Shown piece after piece: positions 12,948 to 30,088 of a stretch of 30,605 nucleotides of DNA. The notes below the pieces were generated by a model that saw nothing but the letters and a program-made list of their open reading frames with translations, searched no databases and was not told where the DNA came from. The stretch is taken from positions 1 to 30,605 of IMG/VR virus record IMGVR_UViG_3300015370_000035; one strand, written 5' to 3'. The translations under genes were made by a program, and so were the position numbers. Positions within the stretch are counted from its first letter, which is position 1. Each line of letters starts with the position of its first letter. The stretch is from a virus (Duplodnaviria > Caudoviricetes).

Positions 12948-13020
12948 TGGGCTCGAAAGGATTCTAACCTTTACCGCAAGGCTCCAAGGCTCCTTATGCA
13001 GTTCCCAGATTGGCGAGCCC
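12948..13020 (-). tRNA. tRNA-like element or degenerate tRNA (anticodon ambiguous, TTG or TGG)
   Basis: 73 nt; perfect acceptor stem GGGCTCG/CGAGCCC plus A; T-arm AAAGG-TTAGAAT-CCTTT; D and anticodon arms pair poorly. Confidence 0.5.
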
Positions 13021-13076
13021 GTTTATTCTACATTTAATTAAATAGACAAAAATTGTCTCTTTGCCCCCTACTATAT

Positions 13077-13103
13077 ATTATATCATACTTTTATAAAAGT
13101 CAA
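13077..13103 (-). promoter_or_regulatory. Leftward sigma70-type promoter of the packaging/head operon
   Basis: TTGACT-15 nt-TATAAT with TG extended -10; contains the palindrome ACTTTTATAAAAGT. Confidence 0.7.
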
Positions 13104-13300
13104 GGGGGTAAAACGACAAAAAGTGTCTTTTTTTTAAATAAAACGACGATTATTGTCATTCTATACCATAGATGGGTTTTAAGGCATAGATATACCAATA
13201 CCATACCAATATACCTATTTACATATATATCGCCTTAAATAGCCGTTTCTGCCATTTCTACGCTATATGTAGATATAGGCTAGAATATAGGATATCAACA

Positions 13301-13338
13301 ATATCCACAGTAAGCCTGATAGGCAGAAGTTATCCACA
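13301..13338 (+). promoter_or_regulatory. DnaA boxes
   Basis: Perfect TTATCCACA at 13330-13338 and one-mismatch ATATCCACA at 13301-13309, same orientation, non-coding. Confidence 0.45.
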
Positions 13339-13617
13339 AAAGTCTGGTTTAGAAAAAGTGTGGGATGGGATATATTATTATACCCTTTGGCTTTCGGGCA
13401 TTCGGACATTGCCTTTATGTTGTCTCCCCATCACCTATGGCTAAAGGCTTGTGGCTTGCATACCTATACTATACTATGGGGTTGTGGTATACACTATACC
13501 CTATACATTGTTGGGCTATGGTATCATATAGATACGGTATGGACAGTAGACAAACAAGCATGTATGTATCTAATGGGGGTTTTGGGGCTGTTTGTTCTGT
13601 AACTCTTGAAATGCCAA

Positions 13618-13688
13618 ACCACAACATATAGTGGTCGGGTATCGAAAAACACGGGGTTAGACACTGTCAGACCACAACATATAGTGGT
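13618..13688. promoter_or_regulatory. Tandem NrdR boxes
   Basis: Two identical 18-mers ACCACAACATATAGTGGT at 13618 and 13671, 53 bp apart; match the NrdR consensus acaCwAtATaTwGtg. Confidence 0.75.
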
Positions 13689-13840
13689 TTGGTCTTTTTG
13701 ATAGGATATATGGGTATATCAAGGCTAATGTCTAGTAGAATGGTAGACAATGTAGCTAGTATATAGTATATATAGAGAGAATGTCTAGTAAACTACTAGG
13801 GATTAGATGGGGAAAGGTGAAGGGAAAGGGGAAATCTATA

Positions 13841-13912
13841 CAATCTCAATCTCAATCTCAGCCTTTGCCTCCATCTCAATCTCAGCCCAAGTCTCAATCG
13901 TTAGTCTCAATC
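13841..13912 (+). repeat. Degenerate TCTCAA/TCTCAG hexamer array
   Basis: caatctcaatctcaatctcagcc...atctcaatctcagccc.agtctcaatc...agtctcaatc. Confidence 0.75.
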
Positions 13913-14523
13913 CCTGGTCTCTATCACCTTGGCTTGATTCCCTAACACCCCACTAACACCTCAAGCGCCACGTTATGTAGATATATATATATACTGTATA
14001 CTATATAATCTATATACCTGATGTGGTATAATGCTGTAGTTATTAATACACGTATTACTACCATTATTAATGTGGTTCTGTTGCGGGTTTTGTTCTGAAA
14101 GGGATCAATGCTAATGTATGCCTTGACTTGCGTTCGTGGCTGTATCGGGCTCTAATCGGCTATGTTTGCATTATTTTTGATTTCTTTTGCCCACTTTGTC
14201 CATTATCGCTATTCCCGCCTTGTTGTCACTAATAGTATAACCCGCAGTGCTGTAATACCGCATTATATATTATTGTGATAATCCATTATTATCTTGCGGG
14301 GTTCTTGCGGGGTATACTGCGGAGTTTCCGTGTTCAGTCAACTGAACTTTCTTACAGTGACCTTCTGGGTGACCTTTTCAGTGTCCTTTTTTGCGTTGTC
14401 AAGCGTTATATATCATTTTATTATTTATGCCATTATTTGTCTTTTAATGCTACTTTACCGACGGAGAATGTATAACTATAAAATATACTAAATAAAAAAA
14501 ATCACTTTATTTGCATTATTTAC

Positions 14524-14552
14524 TTGACAAATAAATTTTCTTGTGGTATACT
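14524..14552 (+). promoter_or_regulatory. Early rightward sigma70-type promoter
   Basis: TTGACA-17 nt-TATACT, TG extended -10, A/T-rich upstream region. Confidence 0.8.
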
Positions 14553-14603
14553 GTTAGTAGAAGGATGGGGAGAAGGAAAATAAAATAAACGAAGGAGGCT
14601 GAG

Positions 14604-14780
14604 ATGAAAGGTTTTAAAATGACAATAGGAAAAGCGGTGTTCTATTTAGTGGGTGATGAATTCCCCAAATATGAGTTTACACAAATTAAGAATATATTCT
14701 TTAACTACAAAATGACAAAAGATGAAAGGATAGATGCAATATTGAAATATTGTGCAGATAATGGCGTTGGAATGAACTAA
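14604..14780 (+). CDS. Early hypothetical protein (58 aa, MKGFKMTIGKAVFYL...)
   Basis: Not in the ORF track; AAGGAGG RBS; stop abuts ribozyme 1. Confidence 0.75.
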   Translation: MKGFKMTIGKAVFYLVGDEFPKYEFTQIKNIFFNYKMTKDERIDAILKYCADNGVGMN

Positions 14781-14845
14781 ATCCCGAAACGTCCCTATAA
14801 TAAGGATAGGGGCGTCTCTGGCTGATAGCCGGACTGATGAGGGAT
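14781..14845 (+). ncRNA. Type II hammerhead ribozyme 1
   Basis: ATCCC-GAAA-[CGTCCCTAT/ATAGGGGCG]-TC-[TCTGGCT/AGCCGGA]-CTGATGA-GGGAT; complete core; predicted cleavage after GUC at 14816. Confidence 0.93.
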
Positions 14846-14875
14846 ATCAGAATAAAATAAACGAAGGGGGCGGAA

Positions 14876-15199
14876 ATGAAAGCGAAAAAAAACAATAACG
14901 GAGAATGGGTAGTCACCGAGGGGGAGGAAAAATACATAGAGACCAGCTCTGCCCAACCAACCAATAGGCTGTTGGATGGCAGCAGGGATCACGGATACTG
15001 GATGGAGTATGAGGGACATGGGCATATAGACGGCACCCCGGTTACGGCGGTATATCTGCTGGGCAGCAGTAATAAGGATATAGAGGATGAGGGAGACTAT
15101 AACTGGGATGAGGCGCTGGCGAACGGGAGGCTGGTAGTTGATACAGACGCAATGACCGACAAGGATTGGGCTGATTTTTTGGAAAAATACTCGGGATAA
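14876..15199 (+). CDS. Acidic early hypothetical protein
   Basis: 107 aa, D/E rich; repeat leader RBS. Confidence 0.8.
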   Translation: MKAKKNNNGEWVVTEGEEKYIETSSAQPTNRLLDGSRDHGYWMEYEGHGHIDGTPVTAVYLLGSSNKDIEDEGDYNWDEALANGRLVVDTDAMTDKDWADFLEKYSG

Positions 15200-15223
15200 A
15201 ATAAAATAAACGAAGGAGGCGGA

Positions 15224-15715
15224 ATGAAAAACAAAAGAATCATAGCAAGAGCGTTGCCAGTAGACACTACGTATAGATTAGTTAATGTAGATTATGCTGG
15301 TGAAGGTGACGCTTCTTTTTGGCAGTGTGAAAACTGCGGTAAAATGATAAAGAACTTATGCACAGTGGAAAGCGGAACTGGAAAGCGGTATATAATAGGT
15401 ACTGAATGTTGTGATAGGCTGACTGGAATAGAGCCCTCAGATACTAAAGAAGCGAAACGTATATTGCGTATACTTAAAAGCATAAGGAAAAAGATTATAG
15501 AGAAAAAGAATGATAATAACTTCTGTTGCCTTATTGACTACTGGAAAAATGGTAGTACTGGAGAAAGCGGTTGCACTATTAGGTATATGAGCAAAAAAGC
15601 ATATGAGAATGACAATGTAGTTATGGGGTCTTTTGCCGTGTCTGGAGTGGGCGGTTTCAAGTCTATATCAAGCATAGTTGACTACCAGGATATTAGAATT
15701 TGCAGGGTTGCCTAA
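15224..15715 (+). CDS. Early Zn-binding hypothetical protein
   Basis: CENCGK.IK...IGTECC; repeat leader RBS. Confidence 0.8.
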   Translation: MKNKRIIARALPVDTTYRLVNVDYAGEGDASFWQCENCGKMIKNLCTVESGTGKRYIIGTECCDRLTGIEPSDTKEAKRILRILKSIRKKIIEKKNDNNFCCLIDYWKNGSTGESGCTIRYMSKKAYENDNVVMGSFAVSGVGGFKSISSIVDYQDIRICRVA

Positions 15716-15718
15716 CAA

Positions 15719-15783
15719 ATCCCGAAACCGCTCTACAATAAGGATAGGGCGGTCTCAAGCTTAAGGCTTGACTGATGAGGGAT
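15719..15783 (+). ncRNA. Type II hammerhead ribozyme 2
   Basis: ATCCC-GAAA-[CCGCTCTA/TAGGGCGG]-TC-[TCAAGCT/GGCTTGA]-CTGATGA-GGGAT; predicted cleavage after GUC at 15754; stems covary with copy 1. Confidence 0.93.
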
Positions 15784-15806
15784 AAATAAAATAAGGGGGG
15801 CGTAAG

Positions 15807-16040
15807 ATGGTAATACAAGTAGAGGATGTAAAAAAAGAAAATAGAAAATATTTTAGAGAAGAGTTATTAAAAAAGGGCGTAAATATAGTATCTTTTGCAG
15901 ATGATAATGCCCGTGTTGAAATCAGGCAAGCTTATTTTATAAATGAACAGGAATTAAAAAGAATATCTGAAATTAAAAAGGCGGTTTATAATTTTATAAC
16001 AGATTTTAGGCATTATCAGTTTAATAAATCATTAAAATAA
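15807..16040 (+). CDS. Early hypothetical protein
   Basis: 77 aa; G-rich RBS after ribozyme 2. Confidence 0.75.
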   Translation: MVIQVEDVKKENRKYFREELLKKGVNIVSFADDNARVEIRQAYFINEQELKRISEIKKAVYNFITDFRHYQFNKSLK

Positions 16041-16056
16041 ACGAAGGGGGCGGACT

Positions 16057-16209
16057 ATGGAAATGATACTTGGTTATATTTGGGGAGCTGGGGTCTTGGC
16101 TCTGATAGGGTTGGGCGGAGCGGTAAGGGCAGAGGCGGGCAGGCGTGATTATGAGGCTGAGAGGTTGGCGAAGATACGGCGGGCGTTGAAGTATATCAAG
16201 GTTAGGTAG
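16057..16209 (+). CDS. Small membrane protein (50 aa, MEMILGYIWGAGVLALIGLGGAVRA...)
   Basis: Not in the ORF track; repeat leader RBS; N-terminal TM segment and basic tail. Confidence 0.65.
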   Translation: MEMILGYIWGAGVLALIGLGGAVRAEAGRRDYEAERLAKIRRALKYIKVR

Positions 16210-16241
16210 AGCAACACTATAATAAGGTAAAAGGGGGAAAG

Positions 16242-16415
16242 ATGAGATATCGCTGGACAAGGGAAGAGTTGGAAAGGGCAACGGAGACGGAGATTTTGAG
16301 GTCATTAGTGGTAGAGCGACAAAGTTTTTGTACAAATATGTATGCTCCACTCTACAAAAGACTGGCTGAGATTTATAGCAATCTTAGCAAAAAAATAGAA
16401 GAGGAGGCGGAATGA
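16242..16415 (+). CDS. Hypothetical protein (57 aa, MRYRWTREELER...)
   Basis: Not in the ORF track; AGGGGG RBS. Confidence 0.65.
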   Translation: MRYRWTREELERATETEILRSLVVERQSFCTNMYAPLYKRLAEIYSNLSKKIEEEAE

Positions 16416-16433
16416 AAAACAAAAGGGGGAGCT

Positions 16434-16622
16434 ATGAAACAAGTTTATATCGTGATAATGTATCTGCACGACTCTTATTTGACGGAAGATGATGATGTTG
16501 AAAGTTGTATTTCCGGTGTATTTGCAACGCACAGAGACGCAGAGAAGAAAAGAGACGAACTTGAAGAACTTGATAAAAGTGGAGTGTGGTTATTTAAGGT
16601 AAGTAAATATAAAGTAAATTGA
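16434..16622 (+). CDS. Small phage hypothetical protein
   Basis: VYIV...GVFAT...AE pattern common in small phage proteins; GGGGGAG RBS. Confidence 0.7.
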   Translation: MKQVYIVIMYLHDSYLTEDDDVESCISGVFATHRDAEKKRDELEELDKSGVWLFKVSKYKVN

Positions 16623-16861
16623 AGGGGGGATATATGTATTATTCATTAAAAGCGACATATCCGGGTTTTGAAAGTGTGTCACGGAATAGCAGGACACGAA
16701 AAAGTTGTTTAAACAAAATGATAGAATTTATGATCCATAGCGGAGATGTTGAGCCCGGTATGCGCAGAGAAAAGCTCAGCCACAAGCAGGATTTTGTTGA
16801 AAGTTGTGATTATAAACTTGTAAGGCATAAAAATAAAAAGGGGGGGGACCGGAAATGTTAA
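16619..16861 (+). CDS. Hypothetical protein
   Basis: ORF track; likely start at the internal ATG (MYYSLK) after a GGGGGG RBS. Confidence 0.65.
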   Translation: MKGGYMYYSLKATYPGFESVSRNSRTRKSCLNKMIEFMIHSGDVEPGMRREKLSHKQDFVESCDYKLVRHKNKKGGDRKC

Positions 16862-16948
16862 TCGGTTACAGACCATTTCGAGGATATGCTCGGAAAGGTA
16901 GATATATGGTCAAGGTCAGGTAGGTAAATTATAAAAGGGAGGGCTGAT

Positions 16949-17050
16949 ATGGACATATTGGCAGGGCTGGGCTTGTTTAGCTTGTTAGCGTTGTTCTTGG
17001 GGGCATTCCTGAGCTTTGTGGATATGCTTATGCACAATAAAAAACATTAG
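16949..17050 (+). CDS. 33-aa single-TM peptide (MDILAGLGLFSLLALFLGAFLSFVDMLMHNKKH)
   Basis: Not in the ORF track; GGGAGG RBS. Confidence 0.55.
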   Translation: MDILAGLGLFSLLALFLGAFLSFVDMLMHNKKH

Positions 17051-17117
17051 GGCGGGCGTATCGTATTTGAATTGTGAAAGGGACGGAAAAAATAAGTTTG
17101 GTTAAGGAGGCTATCTA

Positions 17118-17579: not shown

Positions 17580-17616
17580 TGGGGGGTGGATTGCCCTATC
17601 ACCCCCCATAAAAAAA
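17580..17616. terminator. Terminator-like hairpin closing the early block
   Basis: GGGGGGTG...CACCCCCC followed by an A-run, so the U-tract is on the minus strand. Confidence 0.6.
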
Positions 17617-17650
17617 TGCAAAAATAATGCAAAAAAGCGAATTTACCCTA

Positions 17651-17677
17651 TTGACTTTTGAAAAAGTGTGGTATAAT
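17651..17677 (+). promoter_or_regulatory. Sigma70-type promoter
   Basis: TTGACT-15 nt-TATAAT, TG extended -10; nearly the same sequence as the leftward promoter at 13077-13103. Confidence 0.75.
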
Positions 17678-17696
17678 ATATAGTAGAGGTACAAAT

Positions 17697-20404: not shown

Positions 20405-20411
20405 GGTATAC

Positions 20412-20593
20412 GTGGGTTGGTTGTGGCTGAACAATCCTGTTTGTAGGCAGGATAAGGCGTGATGAGTAGAAGGCTCGTGCCTCTACAGTCAGCAATCTAA
20501 GTCCTCACCAATAAGAGTGAGGTAAAAGGTTTGCAGTTGGTGCCTATGAGCCGTCAGAAATGATGCGAACACCATAACTGCCAACCAGCCCGC
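20412..20593 (+). ncRNA. Putative multi-stem structured ncRNA (~180 nt), family not assigned
   Basis: 12-bp closing stem 20412-20423/20582-20593 begins at the predicted TSS; at least five internal helices including a GAAA tetraloop. Confidence 0.6.
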
Positions 20594-23147: not shown

Positions 23148-23306
23148 ATGGGAAAAGTAAAAGAAGTAAGAGATGATGATTTTAAAAAAAATGATTGGGT
23201 TGAAGATAAATATTTGGTAAGTTTAGATAATCCTATTTGGAGACTTGTAAGATTAAGATTACATTTTTGGAACACAATATTTAGAAAAAAGGAGTGTCTT
23301 AAATGA
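23148..23306 (+). CDS. Hypothetical protein (52 aa, MGKVKEVRDDDF...)
   Basis: Not in the ORF track; AGGAGG RBS; ATGA overlap with the next gene. Confidence 0.6.
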   Translation: MGKVKEVRDDDFKKNDWVEDKYLVSLDNPIWRLVRLRLHFWNTIFRKKECLK

Positions 23307-23686
23307 CTATCAAAGAGTTTGAGAAGTTGTCGGATGAGGATAAGAATAAGATGGTGGCTGAGGCTATGGGAAAGTGTTGGCACAATATAGAGGAATTGCC
23401 TGACGGTTATAGATTTTGTAGAAAGTGTGGTGAATCATCTAATACTATATTGACATTTGAAAACATTGACTATCTCAATACCCCAGAAGGTTGCGTGGCG
23501 ATGATGGAGTGGTGGTTAAATAAATATACTCAATTTAAACTTTATAAAACAAAAGATGGTATTCTTTTTGAGTATATAGATTATGGTTCTACTGAAAAAA
23601 TGTGGAGGATAGAATTTGCTTGTGAAACAATAAACACAGCCCTCGCAATAGCAATACTCAAATCTTCTGGTAAAGTGGAGGACTGA
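23303..23686 (+). CDS. Phage ABA-sandwich/BC1872-like protein, paralog A
   Basis: VAEAMG..W, DYLN, ALAIAILK pattern. Confidence 0.6.
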   Translation: MTIKEFEKLSDEDKNKMVAEAMGKCWHNIEELPDGYRFCRKCGESSNTILTFENIDYLNTPEGCVAMMEWWLNKYTQFKLYKTKDGILFEYIDYGSTEKMWRIEFACETINTALAIAILKSSGKVED

Positions 23687-24929: not shown

Positions 24930-25094
24930 ATGAACCCAATAGAAAAGGTTTATGAACAATTTAAACACCTTGATAAATTAATATCTGATATAACATTTTT
25001 AGATGGAGGAGATAAAATACATAGCCTCTGTTTTGAATTATGGCAAGCGATAAAATCAGAGATGAAAAGATTGAAAGAAAAGGAGTCCAAGTGA
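24930..25094 (+). CDS. Hypothetical protein (54 aa, MNPIEKVYEQFKHLD...LWQAIK)
   Basis: Not in the ORF track; GGGGGAG RBS; GTGA overlap with the next gene. Confidence 0.65.
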   Translation: MNPIEKVYEQFKHLDKLISDITFLDGGDKIHSLCFELWQAIKSEMKRLKEKESK

Positions 25095-25516
25095 AACAAT
25101 ACACCGAACAGGAATTCTCTGCATTATCTGACGATGAGTATAATCGGACTGTAGCGGAGGCGATGGGTAAATGTTGGCACGAGTATAAAGTTAATTTTTA
25201 TAAAGGAGACAGGGATAATAGAGAAAACTATAAATGTTGGAAATGTGGTAAAATAAATGATGCCCCCTATTATTCAACTCCCATGAACATTAACTATCTC
25301 AACTCTGCCGAAGGTTGCGTGGCGATGATGGAGTGGTGTGGCAAAAACATAGAAAGATTTATGATACAATCTGATATTAGGCAAAAGTTTTGGAGAGCAG
25401 GACAGCAAGAAAAAGGCACAACTTGGTTTGAGTGGATTGTTTTTAGCAAAACTTTAGAAGACATAAACACAGCCCTCGCAATAGCCATACTAAAGTCAAA
25501 AGGAGTTGTGGAATGA
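25091..25516 (+). CDS. Phage ABA-sandwich/BC1872-like protein, paralog B
   Basis: Start reassigned to GTG 25091 (AAGGAG RBS); shares blocks with 23303..23686. Confidence 0.6.
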   Translation: MKQYTEQEFSALSDDEYNRTVAEAMGKCWHEYKVNFYKGDRDNRENYKCWKCGKINDAPYYSTPMNINYLNSAEGCVAMMEWCGKNIERFMIQSDIRQKFWRAGQQEKGTTWFEWIVFSKTLEDINTALAIAILKSKGVVE

Positions 25517-28859: not shown

Positions 28860-29545
28860 AACTATCAGTTATCATACCTGTATACAACGAGCCAGACACA
28901 ATTAGGCGTATAGTAAACAGAGTAATGAAAGTTGATATGGAGAAAGAGATTATCATCATAGACCAGTCCACGGATGACACATACCGCATAGTTGGAGAGA
29001 TTATGTCCTATGCTCCCGTCAATCAAAGCGATATAAAATTATTCAGAATGACTAAGAAGAAATCTGACGGCAAAGGTTCGGCGATACGGGAAGGGCTTAA
29101 ATATGTAACCGGCGATATAGTAATCATACAGGACGCAGACTTGGAGTATGATCCCAACGATTACTACGAGCTTGTAAGGCCTATAGTGGAAGGCAGGGCA
29201 AGTGTGGTGTATGGCTCAAGGATTTTGGGCAATAATGAGAAGTCATCCCTATGTTTCTACTTGGGCGGAAGGTTGCTGACATTCCTTGCTAATATTCTCT
29301 ACAAAGCCAACATTACAGATGAGCCGACCTGCTACAAGGTATTCCTGACAGCCGTGATAAAGAGTATTGACCTGAAGTGTAAGCGATTTGATTTCTGCCC
29401 CGAAGTTACTGCGAAAGTCAGAAAGATGGGATATGAAATACTTGAAGTTCCTATCCACTATTATCCTCGCTCACTTGAAGAAGGCAAGAAGATAAGGTGG
29501 CAAGATGGGATTGAAGCGATATGGACGCTGATAAAATATAGATAG
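28856..29545 (+). CDS. GT2 DPM1-like polyprenyl-phosphate glycosyltransferase
   Basis: LSVIIPVYNE, GKGSAIR, IQDADLEYDP, VVYGSR, TD..TCYK, GKKIRWQDG. Confidence 0.9.
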   Translation: MKLSVIIPVYNEPDTIRRIVNRVMKVDMEKEIIIIDQSTDDTYRIVGEIMSYAPVNQSDIKLFRMTKKKSDGKGSAIREGLKYVTGDIVIIQDADLEYDPNDYYELVRPIVEGRASVVYGSRILGNNEKSSLCFYLGGRLLTFLANILYKANITDEPTCYKVFLTAVIKSIDLKCKRFDFCPEVTAKVRKMGYEILEVPIHYYPRSLEEGKKIRWQDGIEAIWTLIKYR

Positions 29546-29554
29546 GGGGAATAG

Positions 29555-30088
29555 ATGAAAATCACAAAAGAACTACTGAGGAGATGGGGTCTCTTAGAAT
29601 ATAATACGAGATGGTGTGACAATTATAAAGAAACTGACGGATTGAAATTGGTTAAAGTGCTGATAGAGGATAATCAATTATCGTGGGCTAATTGGCTCAT
29701 TTCACACCTAATGAATTACGAACAGAGAGTTTCTTATGCGGTTTTTGCTGCGGAGCAAGTTATAGATTTGTATGAGGAGAAGTATCCTAATGACAAACGA
29801 CCACGAGAGGCGATAGAGGCAGCGAAAAAGTGTATTGAAAATCCAAGTAAGGAAAACAAAGACGCAGCTTATGCGGCGGCATACTTGGCACGCTTATCAG
29901 ACGCCTTGGTAGACTCATCGTATGAAGCAGTATACGCAGTATCTGCGGCATCATACGCAGCATACACATCAGAAGATGAAGAAGACTCTGCAGAATATGC
30001 GTCATACGCAGCAGATGAAGCATCGGTAGACTCAGAAATGAAAGTCAAGATACTTAATTATGGAATTGAATTATTGGAAGTCAAATAG
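29555..30088 (+). CDS. Imm5-like phage protein with Ala/Tyr-rich repeats
   Basis: AEQVIDLYEEKYPNDKRPREAIEAAK followed by AAYAAAY-type repeats. Confidence 0.6.
   Translation: MKITKELLRRWGLLEYNTRWCDNYKETDGLKLVKVLIEDNQLSWANWLISHLMNYEQRVSYAVFAAEQVIDLYEEKYPNDKRPREAIEAAKKCIENPSKENKDAAYAAAYLARLSDALVDSSYEAVYAVSAASYAAYTSEDEEDSAEYASYAADEASVDSEMKVKILNYGIELLEVK

Follow-up and report, generated by a model that had tools for sequence, protein, structure and literature searches.

The window, by which we mean the whole stretch of DNA analysed here, comprises 30,605 nt and is the entire virus record IMGVR_UViG_3300015370_000035, a linear and about 36% complete genome of a groundwater phage. Its left part carries terminase, portal and head/packaging genes on the minus strand, and its right part carries helicase, exonuclease and methylase genes on the plus strand. 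Judging by this layout, the block of small genes considered here would be an early region, and a promoter-like site at 14524..14552 is, by its sequence, the likely transcript start. The features of this block are as follows.

14524..14552, plus strand: sigma-70-type promoter-like site (11/12 consensus, TG ahead of the -10 box)
14583..14599, 14855-14871, 15204-15220 and 16035-16051, plus strand: A-rich leader and Shine-Dalgarno element in four copies
14604..14780, plus strand: 58-aa ORF, the first gene, with its stop codon directly before hammerhead 1 and no family in PHROGs or Pfam
14781..14849 (14781-14845 without the full tail), plus strand: type II hammerhead 1, found by descriptor, fold and Rfam
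14781-85/14841-45 (stem II), 14790-98/14806-14 (stem III) and 14817-22/14828-33 (stem I), plus strand: stems of hammerhead 1
14823-27 and 14845-49, plus strand: loop I and tail of hammerhead 1, with up to 5 bp of pseudoknot pairing possible
14817..15754, plus strand: 938-nt RNA whose release is predicted
14876..15199, plus strand: 107-aa ORF, starting 59 nt past cut 1
15224..15715, plus strand: 163-aa ORF with a cysteine-bearing N-terminal domain
15719..15785 (15719-15783 without the full tail), plus strand: type II hammerhead 2, found by descriptor, fold and Rfam
15719-23/15779-83 (stem II), 15728-35/15745-52 (stem III) and 15755-60/15766-71 (stem I), plus strand: stems of hammerhead 2
15783-85, plus strand: tail of hammerhead 2, forming with loop I a 3-bp A-U pseudoknot at most
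15807..16040, plus strand: 77-aa ORF, starting 52 nt past cut 2

The motifs were said to begin 0-3 nt past a stop codon, and the measured distances are indeed 0 nt for hammerhead 1 and 3 nt for hammerhead 2. The junction between the 107-aa and 163-aa genes bears the same leader (15204..15220) and no ribozyme, so the leader appears to be functional without a hammerhead.

No close relative of this phage came to light. Searching 50,697 phage records with blastn gave no match, and a terminase scan gave one partial relative at 42%, without hammerheads. An alignment search with the 107-aa protein was empty for viral contigs, and among genome contigs its one match was weak and probably spurious; three window-specific patterns matched 0 viral contigs, in sets from which records very near the window may be absent. 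Neither PHROGs nor Pfam holds a family for the small proteins, the 107-aa and 163-aa ones included, and when the small proteins of the window were compared with 260 fetched loci, one weak match was the only one obtained. The 107-aa protein has two homologues (62% and 53% identity) and nothing usable in the protein atlas; for the 77-aa ORF no homologue was found besides itself. The 163-aa protein belongs to a widespread unnamed family (181 matches at E<=0.001, itself included; unnamed viral clusters in the protein atlas), in which residues C35, N37, C38, G59 and C62 of the N-terminal domain are invariant, and this domain is likely, judging from these residues, to be zinc-binding. Some long homologues bear ART-PolyVal, DUF3140 or sliding-clamp domains, a domain company that fits an early host-interaction role without showing it.

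Several other elements of the record deserve mention. The region 13000-14550, about 1.5 kb between divergent promoter-like sites, is mostly non-coding and of low complexity with short tandem repeats; contigs of a metagenome run break inside it, at 13833-13836, and it is possibly a genome end or origin. A 48-nt inverted repeat (85%) lies at 13065-13112 and 17642-17689, with both arms promoter-like, one facing the packaging genes and the other the middle genes. Past the minus-strand promoter-like site 13103-13075, the minus-strand stretch 12948-13020 is tRNA-like: it has a hairpin resembling a T arm and a stem of 7 bp resembling an acceptor stem (no ARAGORN call; z -1.85). Right after another promoter-like site (17651-17679), the plus-strand segment 17696-17818 folds into a long, strong stem-loop (z -4.4, 0/200 shuffles) that has no Rfam match and might be a phage non-coding RNA. 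The small-gene block ends in a G/C-rich plus-strand hairpin at 17580-17608, followed by A runs and with no U tail on either strand (z -2.51; a SAM-II match at E 0.89 is likely due to chance). At 20410-20591 (plus strand) there is a weak manA RNA match (E 0.004, 26.4 bits versus a gathering score of 55.2), placed after a promoter-like repeat and ahead of a DnaB-like helicase gene (z -2.87 for 20405-20550). Finally, ORFs 23303-23686 and 25040-25516, a duplicated pair flanking a radical SAM gene, have three repeats of 46-57 nt in common (72-89% identity).

Two complete type II hammerheads in the same orientation had been reported at this locus by the initial annotation, and both their coordinates and their cores were confirmed. 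In hammerheads 1 and 2, respectively, GAAA lies at 14786-89 and 15724-27, GUC at 14814-16 and 15752-54, and CUGAUGA at 14834-40 and 15772-78. The order stem II-GAAA-stem III-UH-stem I-CUGANGA-stem II, which places them in type II, is present in both copies; loops close stems I and III, whereas stem II is open, and no mispair adjoins the core. The proposed spacing of 938 nt between the predicted cut sites, 14816/14817 in copy 1 and 15754/15755 in copy 2, was reproduced by the descriptor scan. When folded as 81 nt, each copy adopts the three-way junction as the fold of lowest energy (z -3.74 and -4.75), and 0/200 shuffles folded as well as either of them. A scan of both strands with descriptors for all three permutations recovered the two copies and one weak type III-like match with 3/3/3-bp stems at 29516-29650, while in 100 dinucleotide-shuffled versions of the window the scan made 19 loose matches and 0 strict ones; a search for a degenerate third hammerhead in the window with nhmmer found nothing significant. 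An Infernal search with Rfam models, which had been proposed as a check, gave a mixed outcome: the RF02276 model matches both motifs over its own whole length with 31 and 25.7 bits (E 2.9e-6 and 7.3e-5 for the genome), but these scores stay under the gathering score of 37 bits. It needs to be mentioned that this score is a curation threshold rather than a biological definition, and that just 8 of 34 clear seed motifs from the comparison loci pass it.

The two copies are 81% identical across 68 nt, and the differences are unevenly spread. As had been claimed, stem II (0/10 positions changed) and loop III (0/7) are invariant, while changes fall in stem III (6/18), stem I (4/12), loop I (3/5) and the tail (4/5). 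The further claim that stems I and III differ by compensatory changes holds in part. Four pairs are altered on both sides, but the two stems taken together also contain one wobble and one C-A mismatch; within stem III two pairs are altered on both sides, one has become a wobble, and the loop-adjacent one is the C-A mismatch in copy 2. This retention of pairing despite sequence change speaks for selection on RNA structure. The identity of loop III is marginal (chance about 0.04-0.13 by a hand estimate) and fits common descent. We considered loop III as a family signal and dropped it, the heptamer occurring in 0 other of the 193 motifs compared and a 5-nt part of it in two others. In 14550-17100 (plus strand) the heptamer AATAAGG occurs 5 times against 0.86 expected; two occurrences are the ribozyme copies, and the remaining ones lie at 15071 (coding), 15790 and 16221 (leaders), with those at 15071 and 16221 outside hairpin loops. 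This excess may reflect merely the leader style of the phage.

A feature absent from the initial annotation is a possible pseudoknot between loop I and the 3' tail, whose pairing potential amounts to 5 bp in copy 1 and to 3 bp, all A-U, in copy 2. Such a pseudoknot is the usual tertiary contact of type II motifs and speeds cleavage (PMC3088659). Because the pseudoknot of copy 2 reaches just 3 bp of A-U, hammerhead 2 may be slow. Copy 1 has a different peculiarity: when at least 40 flanking bases are included, a model without pseudoknots turns it to a rival hairpin in which the catalytic core pairs with the tail (P 0.96), so that the tail has two alternative partners, loop I or the core, in a competition that the folding model cannot score. 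The same flanked, pseudoknot-free model loses stem II in 144 of 191 motifs and pairs the core in this way in 47 of 191; thus the rival hairpin is a weak counter-argument, and we rejected the low stem II probability of copy 1 as a sign of inactivity. A core-tail hairpin of 6-7 bp is found in 12/191 motifs, and copy 2 is free of such a rival.

We then placed the pair within its family. The comparison set was built from 258 fetched loci and the window and holds 193 distinct type II motifs (the window's two included) in 181 clusters; the loci were fetched by patterns fixing stem II, which makes them a biased and not a random sample. One stem II variant by itself matches about 1200 viral stretches, and the loose metagenome pattern matches mostly by chance, about 20 of 120 loci holding a hammerhead and those without one adding nothing to the counts; the descriptor run on reversed sequence gave 0 matches. 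The breakpoint, second-scan and copy-comparison counts leave out six loci that overlap with an adjacent one on their contig. Three regularities emerged. First, GAAA lies within 10 nt of an upstream stop codon in 135 of 179 flanked motifs, as compared with 305 of 4706 random positions; the end of the stop codon precedes GAAA by 2-8 nt in 131/179 motifs, and by 5 and 8 nt in the window. Second, the distance from the cut to the next start codon is nearly constant (median 56 nt, quartiles 50-62, n=171), and the values of 59 and 52 nt found here are typical. Third, a pseudoknot of at least 4 bp is possible in 120/189 motifs, against a mean of 53 (maximum 65) with tails permuted. For this stop-codon and Shine-Dalgarno geometry we found no publication in a full-text search that covered few subscription papers, which is a thin basis for calling it unreported.

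Arrays in this family reach 8 and 9 motifs per locus, and 61 adjacent pairs enclose units of 250-2432 nt, among which 36 hold one called ORF, 11 hold two, 8 at least three and 6 none at 40 aa. With units spanning 250-2432 nt and two ORFs in 11/61, a unit of two genes and 938 nt is unremarkable, and the window pair is an ordinary member of the type II family. The largest arrays (L170 and L173, with 8 and 9 type II hammerheads at successive junctions in about 3 kb) would be stronger test cases. Three sequences (L140, L147 and L179) show a variant with one extra base between CUGAUGA and stem II, which the descriptor misses; such variants, found by Rfam, lie about 300 nt from a standard copy, and L143, L148, L158 and L202 may be further cases. 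We had also considered the argument that many hammerheads are solitary and hence no circle is formed, and we dropped it: the descriptor called 34 of 55 well-flanked loci single, yet 8 of these 34 carry a second ribozyme according to Rfam, and one further locus a type III motif according to the descriptor.

Taken with tested relatives, this anatomy leads us to favour, as the best and a reasonably probable reading, self-processing of the transcript into linear, hairpin-capped mRNAs. The initial annotation had offered host-independent mRNA maturation as the alternative to its main proposal, and it is this alternative that motif structure, family geometry and the analogy with tested motifs best support. 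In this scenario, a transcript from the promoter-like site would run through the 58-aa gene, hammerhead 1, the 107-aa and 163-aa genes, hammerhead 2 and further small genes. Both hammerheads would cut after GUC during or soon after transcription, without host nucleases, yielding three linear messages, and such cleavage is likely in view of relatives for which it was demonstrated: three tandem hammerhead clusters cut in vitro, one of them also in E. coli (PMC3088659), and cleavage in Desulfovibrio cells is known for type II motifs close to phage genes, of which two are separated by about 310 nt (PMC8782182).

With each cut, stem III would stay on the upstream piece and stem I would stand at the first base of the downstream piece. 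Since only a 5-bp helix (-5.5 kcal/mol) would hold the products together, the pieces would be expected to separate. Each gene block would thereby gain a fixed leader of 52-59 nt, an open ribosome-binding site, its own rate of decay and, most likely, a longer life. Two junctions would be punctuated in this way, and the pair would not mark the border of a special unit. The predicted structures agree with this outline, as the 938-nt piece has the stem I hairpin at its first base (pair probabilities 0.79-0.98) and the stem III hairpin two bases from its end (0.95-1.0). The anatomy, together with relatives that have been tested (Perreault 2011; Olzog 2021), thus leads to the initial annotation's 938-nt two-gene RNA with a hairpin at each end, but its release remains a prediction. 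After cutting, the ribosome-binding regions would be mostly unpaired (mean 0.83 for the 107-aa gene and 0.78 for the 77-aa gene); the predicted openness rises on cutting from 0.62 to 0.78 for the 77-aa gene and is 0.83 both before and after for the 107-aa gene.

As to the lifetime of the pieces, 5' monophosphates and unpaired 3' ends favour decay and end hairpins hinder it; because RNases E, J and Y have a preference for ends with a 5' monophosphate, and unpaired ends are what 3' exonucleases need (PMC7509114), a longer life seems likely. The effect may nevertheless have the opposite sign, since a 5'-hydroxyl end does not protect in every case: RNase J1 degrades the glmS product that begins with one (PMC11780869).

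This example leads to the first alternative, namely that the cuts are real but lower or time expression, either because a 5' exonuclease takes the 5'-hydroxyl piece or because cleavage is gated by the terminating ribosome or by the rival hairpin of copy 1. We regard it as unlikely. The glmS case is a metabolite-gated one, and here a hairpin begins at the very first base of the product. Gating by the ribosome draws on the geometry of the stop codon: with its end 2-8 nt before GAAA in most motifs, the 5' strand of stem II falls within the footprint of a terminating ribosome, and so close a stop codon suggests that the ribosome covers this strand, from where it could control folding or pull the two products away from each other. 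The same tight spacing could be explained by genome compaction alone, and a control with junctions that lack a ribozyme (median gap 53, n=593) overlooks small genes and does not settle the matter. The choice of the copy 1 tail between loop I and the core, together with the 6-7-bp core-tail hairpin of a dozen motifs, would fit gating by a hairpin, but copy 2 has no such hairpin.

Another alternative holds that the ribozymes matter little and that the ribozyme-plus-leader blocks are duplicating short repeats, serving as joints for the exchange of small-gene cassettes, with cutting being tolerated. The similarity of the two copies over 68 nt and the fourfold occurrence of the leader element are what one would expect of such joints. 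Furthermore, the 163-aa gene family is not tied to ribozymes, as among 28 loci with distant homologues (several with short flanks) 26 have no hammerhead, 2 have one type I hammerhead beside the gene and 0 have two. These type I motifs, at L279 551-611 and L289 2876-2925, adjoin the homologue upstream of the gene in the former and 3 nt after its stop in the latter, and were missed by Rfam at E 0.1. In addition, 18 of 124 internal homology ends fall within 40 nt of a hammerhead, such stretches making up about 2.5% of a locus, but these ends are not independent of one another, a hammerhead in either locus counts, and the figure lacks a control from ordinary gene junctions. What speaks against mere joints is that pairing was kept through four double-sided changes, as pure recombination joints would keep sequence and not pairing. 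Contigs of one groundwater metagenome DNA run, which may be from the source sample, also contain no joints, deletions or variants between the copies. We thus consider this explanation distinctly unlikely, and linear self-processing remains the preferred one.

The main proposal of the initial annotation was a retrozyme-like, protein-coding circular RNA formed by ligation of the 938-nt piece. In the version weighed here, host RtcB or the hammerhead in reverse would join the ends, and the circle would accumulate and act as the functional message. On one hand, the idea is not without appeal. The predicted end chemistry is what RtcB joins (PMC8782182), RtcB is common in hosts (10/14 control genomes), the identical stem II of both copies lets the joined ends form 5 bp, and the 107-aa and 163-aa genes each retain their own ribosome-binding site. 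The core-tail hairpin could even hide the rebuilt core in the released piece and spare the circle. On the other hand, the fold that spares the circle would silence the precursor likewise. The rebuilt junction would be a complete ribozyme, and with every flank length used its fold resembles that of native copy 1 (stem II P 0.91 versus 0.92 with 10-nt flanks, and 0.03 versus 0.02 with 40); therefore a circle would be re-cut whenever copy 1 can cut.

The family comparison does not help the circle either. In 15 of 61 neighbour pairs (16/62 in a second scan) stem II of the circle junction has fewer than 2 bp. The circle junction is better than the reverse junction in 10 pairs and worse in 16-17 (p 0.25), and the absence of a bias gives no sign of selection for self-ligation, although this test says nothing on ligation by a protein; identical inner stem II in neighbours (36/62) is a figure inflated by the search patterns. 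Among 37 phage records with several ribozymes, 11 of which reach a completeness of at least 90%, 0 encode RtcB, and neither does the phage's own record. Folding of the circle is ordinary (z -1.0 with 20 shuffles, 54% paired versus 55%), and it has no endless frame.

Published work points in the same direction. Circles and spliced products from such clusters were named as alternatives in Perreault 2011 and, as data not shown, were not detected there (PMC3088659). Viroid monomers cut by hammerheads in E. coli did not circularise to a substantial extent unless a plant ligase was added (PMC5895719). Circular RNA agents described in PMC13725137 nearly always carry type III motifs, and the retrozymes of PMC7761336 are non-coding with type III or I hammerheads. 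A literature search that covered few subscription papers returned no relevant publication on circles of phage ribozymes with RtcB. Hence the retrozyme-like coding circle finds no support: the retrozyme features tested are lacking, stem II compatibility is not kept between neighbours, the junction would be re-cut, and Perreault 2011 looked for such circles and detected none. Nothing in the present evidence points to it, and we hold it to be very improbable. Equally little credence is due to its most specific form, in which a host RtcB-type ligase acting on tandem type II hammerheads gives a 938-nt two-gene circular mRNA, closed by the copy 1 tail on the rebuilt core. If true, a DNA virus of bacteria would here possess a natural circular message that codes for protein, which would matter far more than linear processing.

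Least probable of all is that a motif, or even both, fails to cut within its natural surroundings. In favour of this are the scores under the Rfam gathering threshold, the rival fold of copy 1, the weak pseudoknot of copy 2 and the 4 of 18 consensus hammerheads inactive in Perreault 2011 (PMC3088659). Opposed to it are the perfect cores, stem lengths of 5, 8-9 and 6-7 bp, pairs changed on both sides, a textbook position, the 14 of 18 that were active in the same study and the activity of all motifs of its three tandem clusters.

Processing into linear messages, which we prefer, is also what has been proposed for the closest known system. Perreault 2011 (PMC3088659) described several hammerheads placed close around one gene or short block in phage or prophage DNA, intergenic and on the coding strand, of type II form with a loop I/tail pseudoknot and with variable flanked genes. 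Its proposal was processing into operon- or gene-length mRNAs, with circles and splicing as undetected alternatives, so that this paper already contains the arrangement as well as both the processing model and the alternative of a circle. What differs here is a new phage for which no close relative was found, with two motifs and enclosed genes of no known family; moreover, the geometry of stop codon and leader measured by us is not given in the compared parts of that paper. The type II motifs of Desulfovibrio vulgaris (cyPhyRNA-seq, PMC8782182) likewise have hypothetical and phage-like genes as neighbours, and two of these motifs are near each other on the same strand, but they have in-cell cleavage data (weak for one locus), whereas cutting by the pair in the window is predicted.

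The likeness to retrozymes (PMC7761336) consists in two same-sense hammerheads around a 0.6-1-kb stretch and in the same end chemistry. Retrozymes, however, are non-coding, eukaryotic, multi-copy and highly self-paired, with type III motifs in LTRs of about 350 bp or type I motifs in tandem repeats of 150-300 bp (PMC7761336). In contrast, the locus studied here is of type II and coding (two ORFs with ribosome-binding sites and homologues), and has a 68-nt repeat, a single pair and ordinary folding. No tandem array was found at the locus, and the 30.6-kb record (36% complete) holds one hammerhead pair and no RVT_1.

The role of self-cleaving ribozymes in bacteria and phages was still called largely elusive in a 2019 review (PMC6765202). 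The present locus does not answer this question. It does offer a clean and small test piece of 1.6 kb, with a promoter-like site, two junctions predicted to be cut and one uncut junction with the same leader, and the type II geometry (stop codon 2-8 nt before GAAA, near-constant leader, a hairpin on each of the products) leads one to expect end-capping and perhaps a link with translation termination. The early RNA of T7 is cut by RNase III, and RiboJ is a synthetic insulator; the arrangement described here resembles both in that a long message would be cut at gene junctions, giving each piece a fixed leader and structured ends. It differs from them in that no protein nuclease would be involved, the ends would be a 5'-hydroxyl and a cyclic phosphate, and the device is natural and repeated along the operon.
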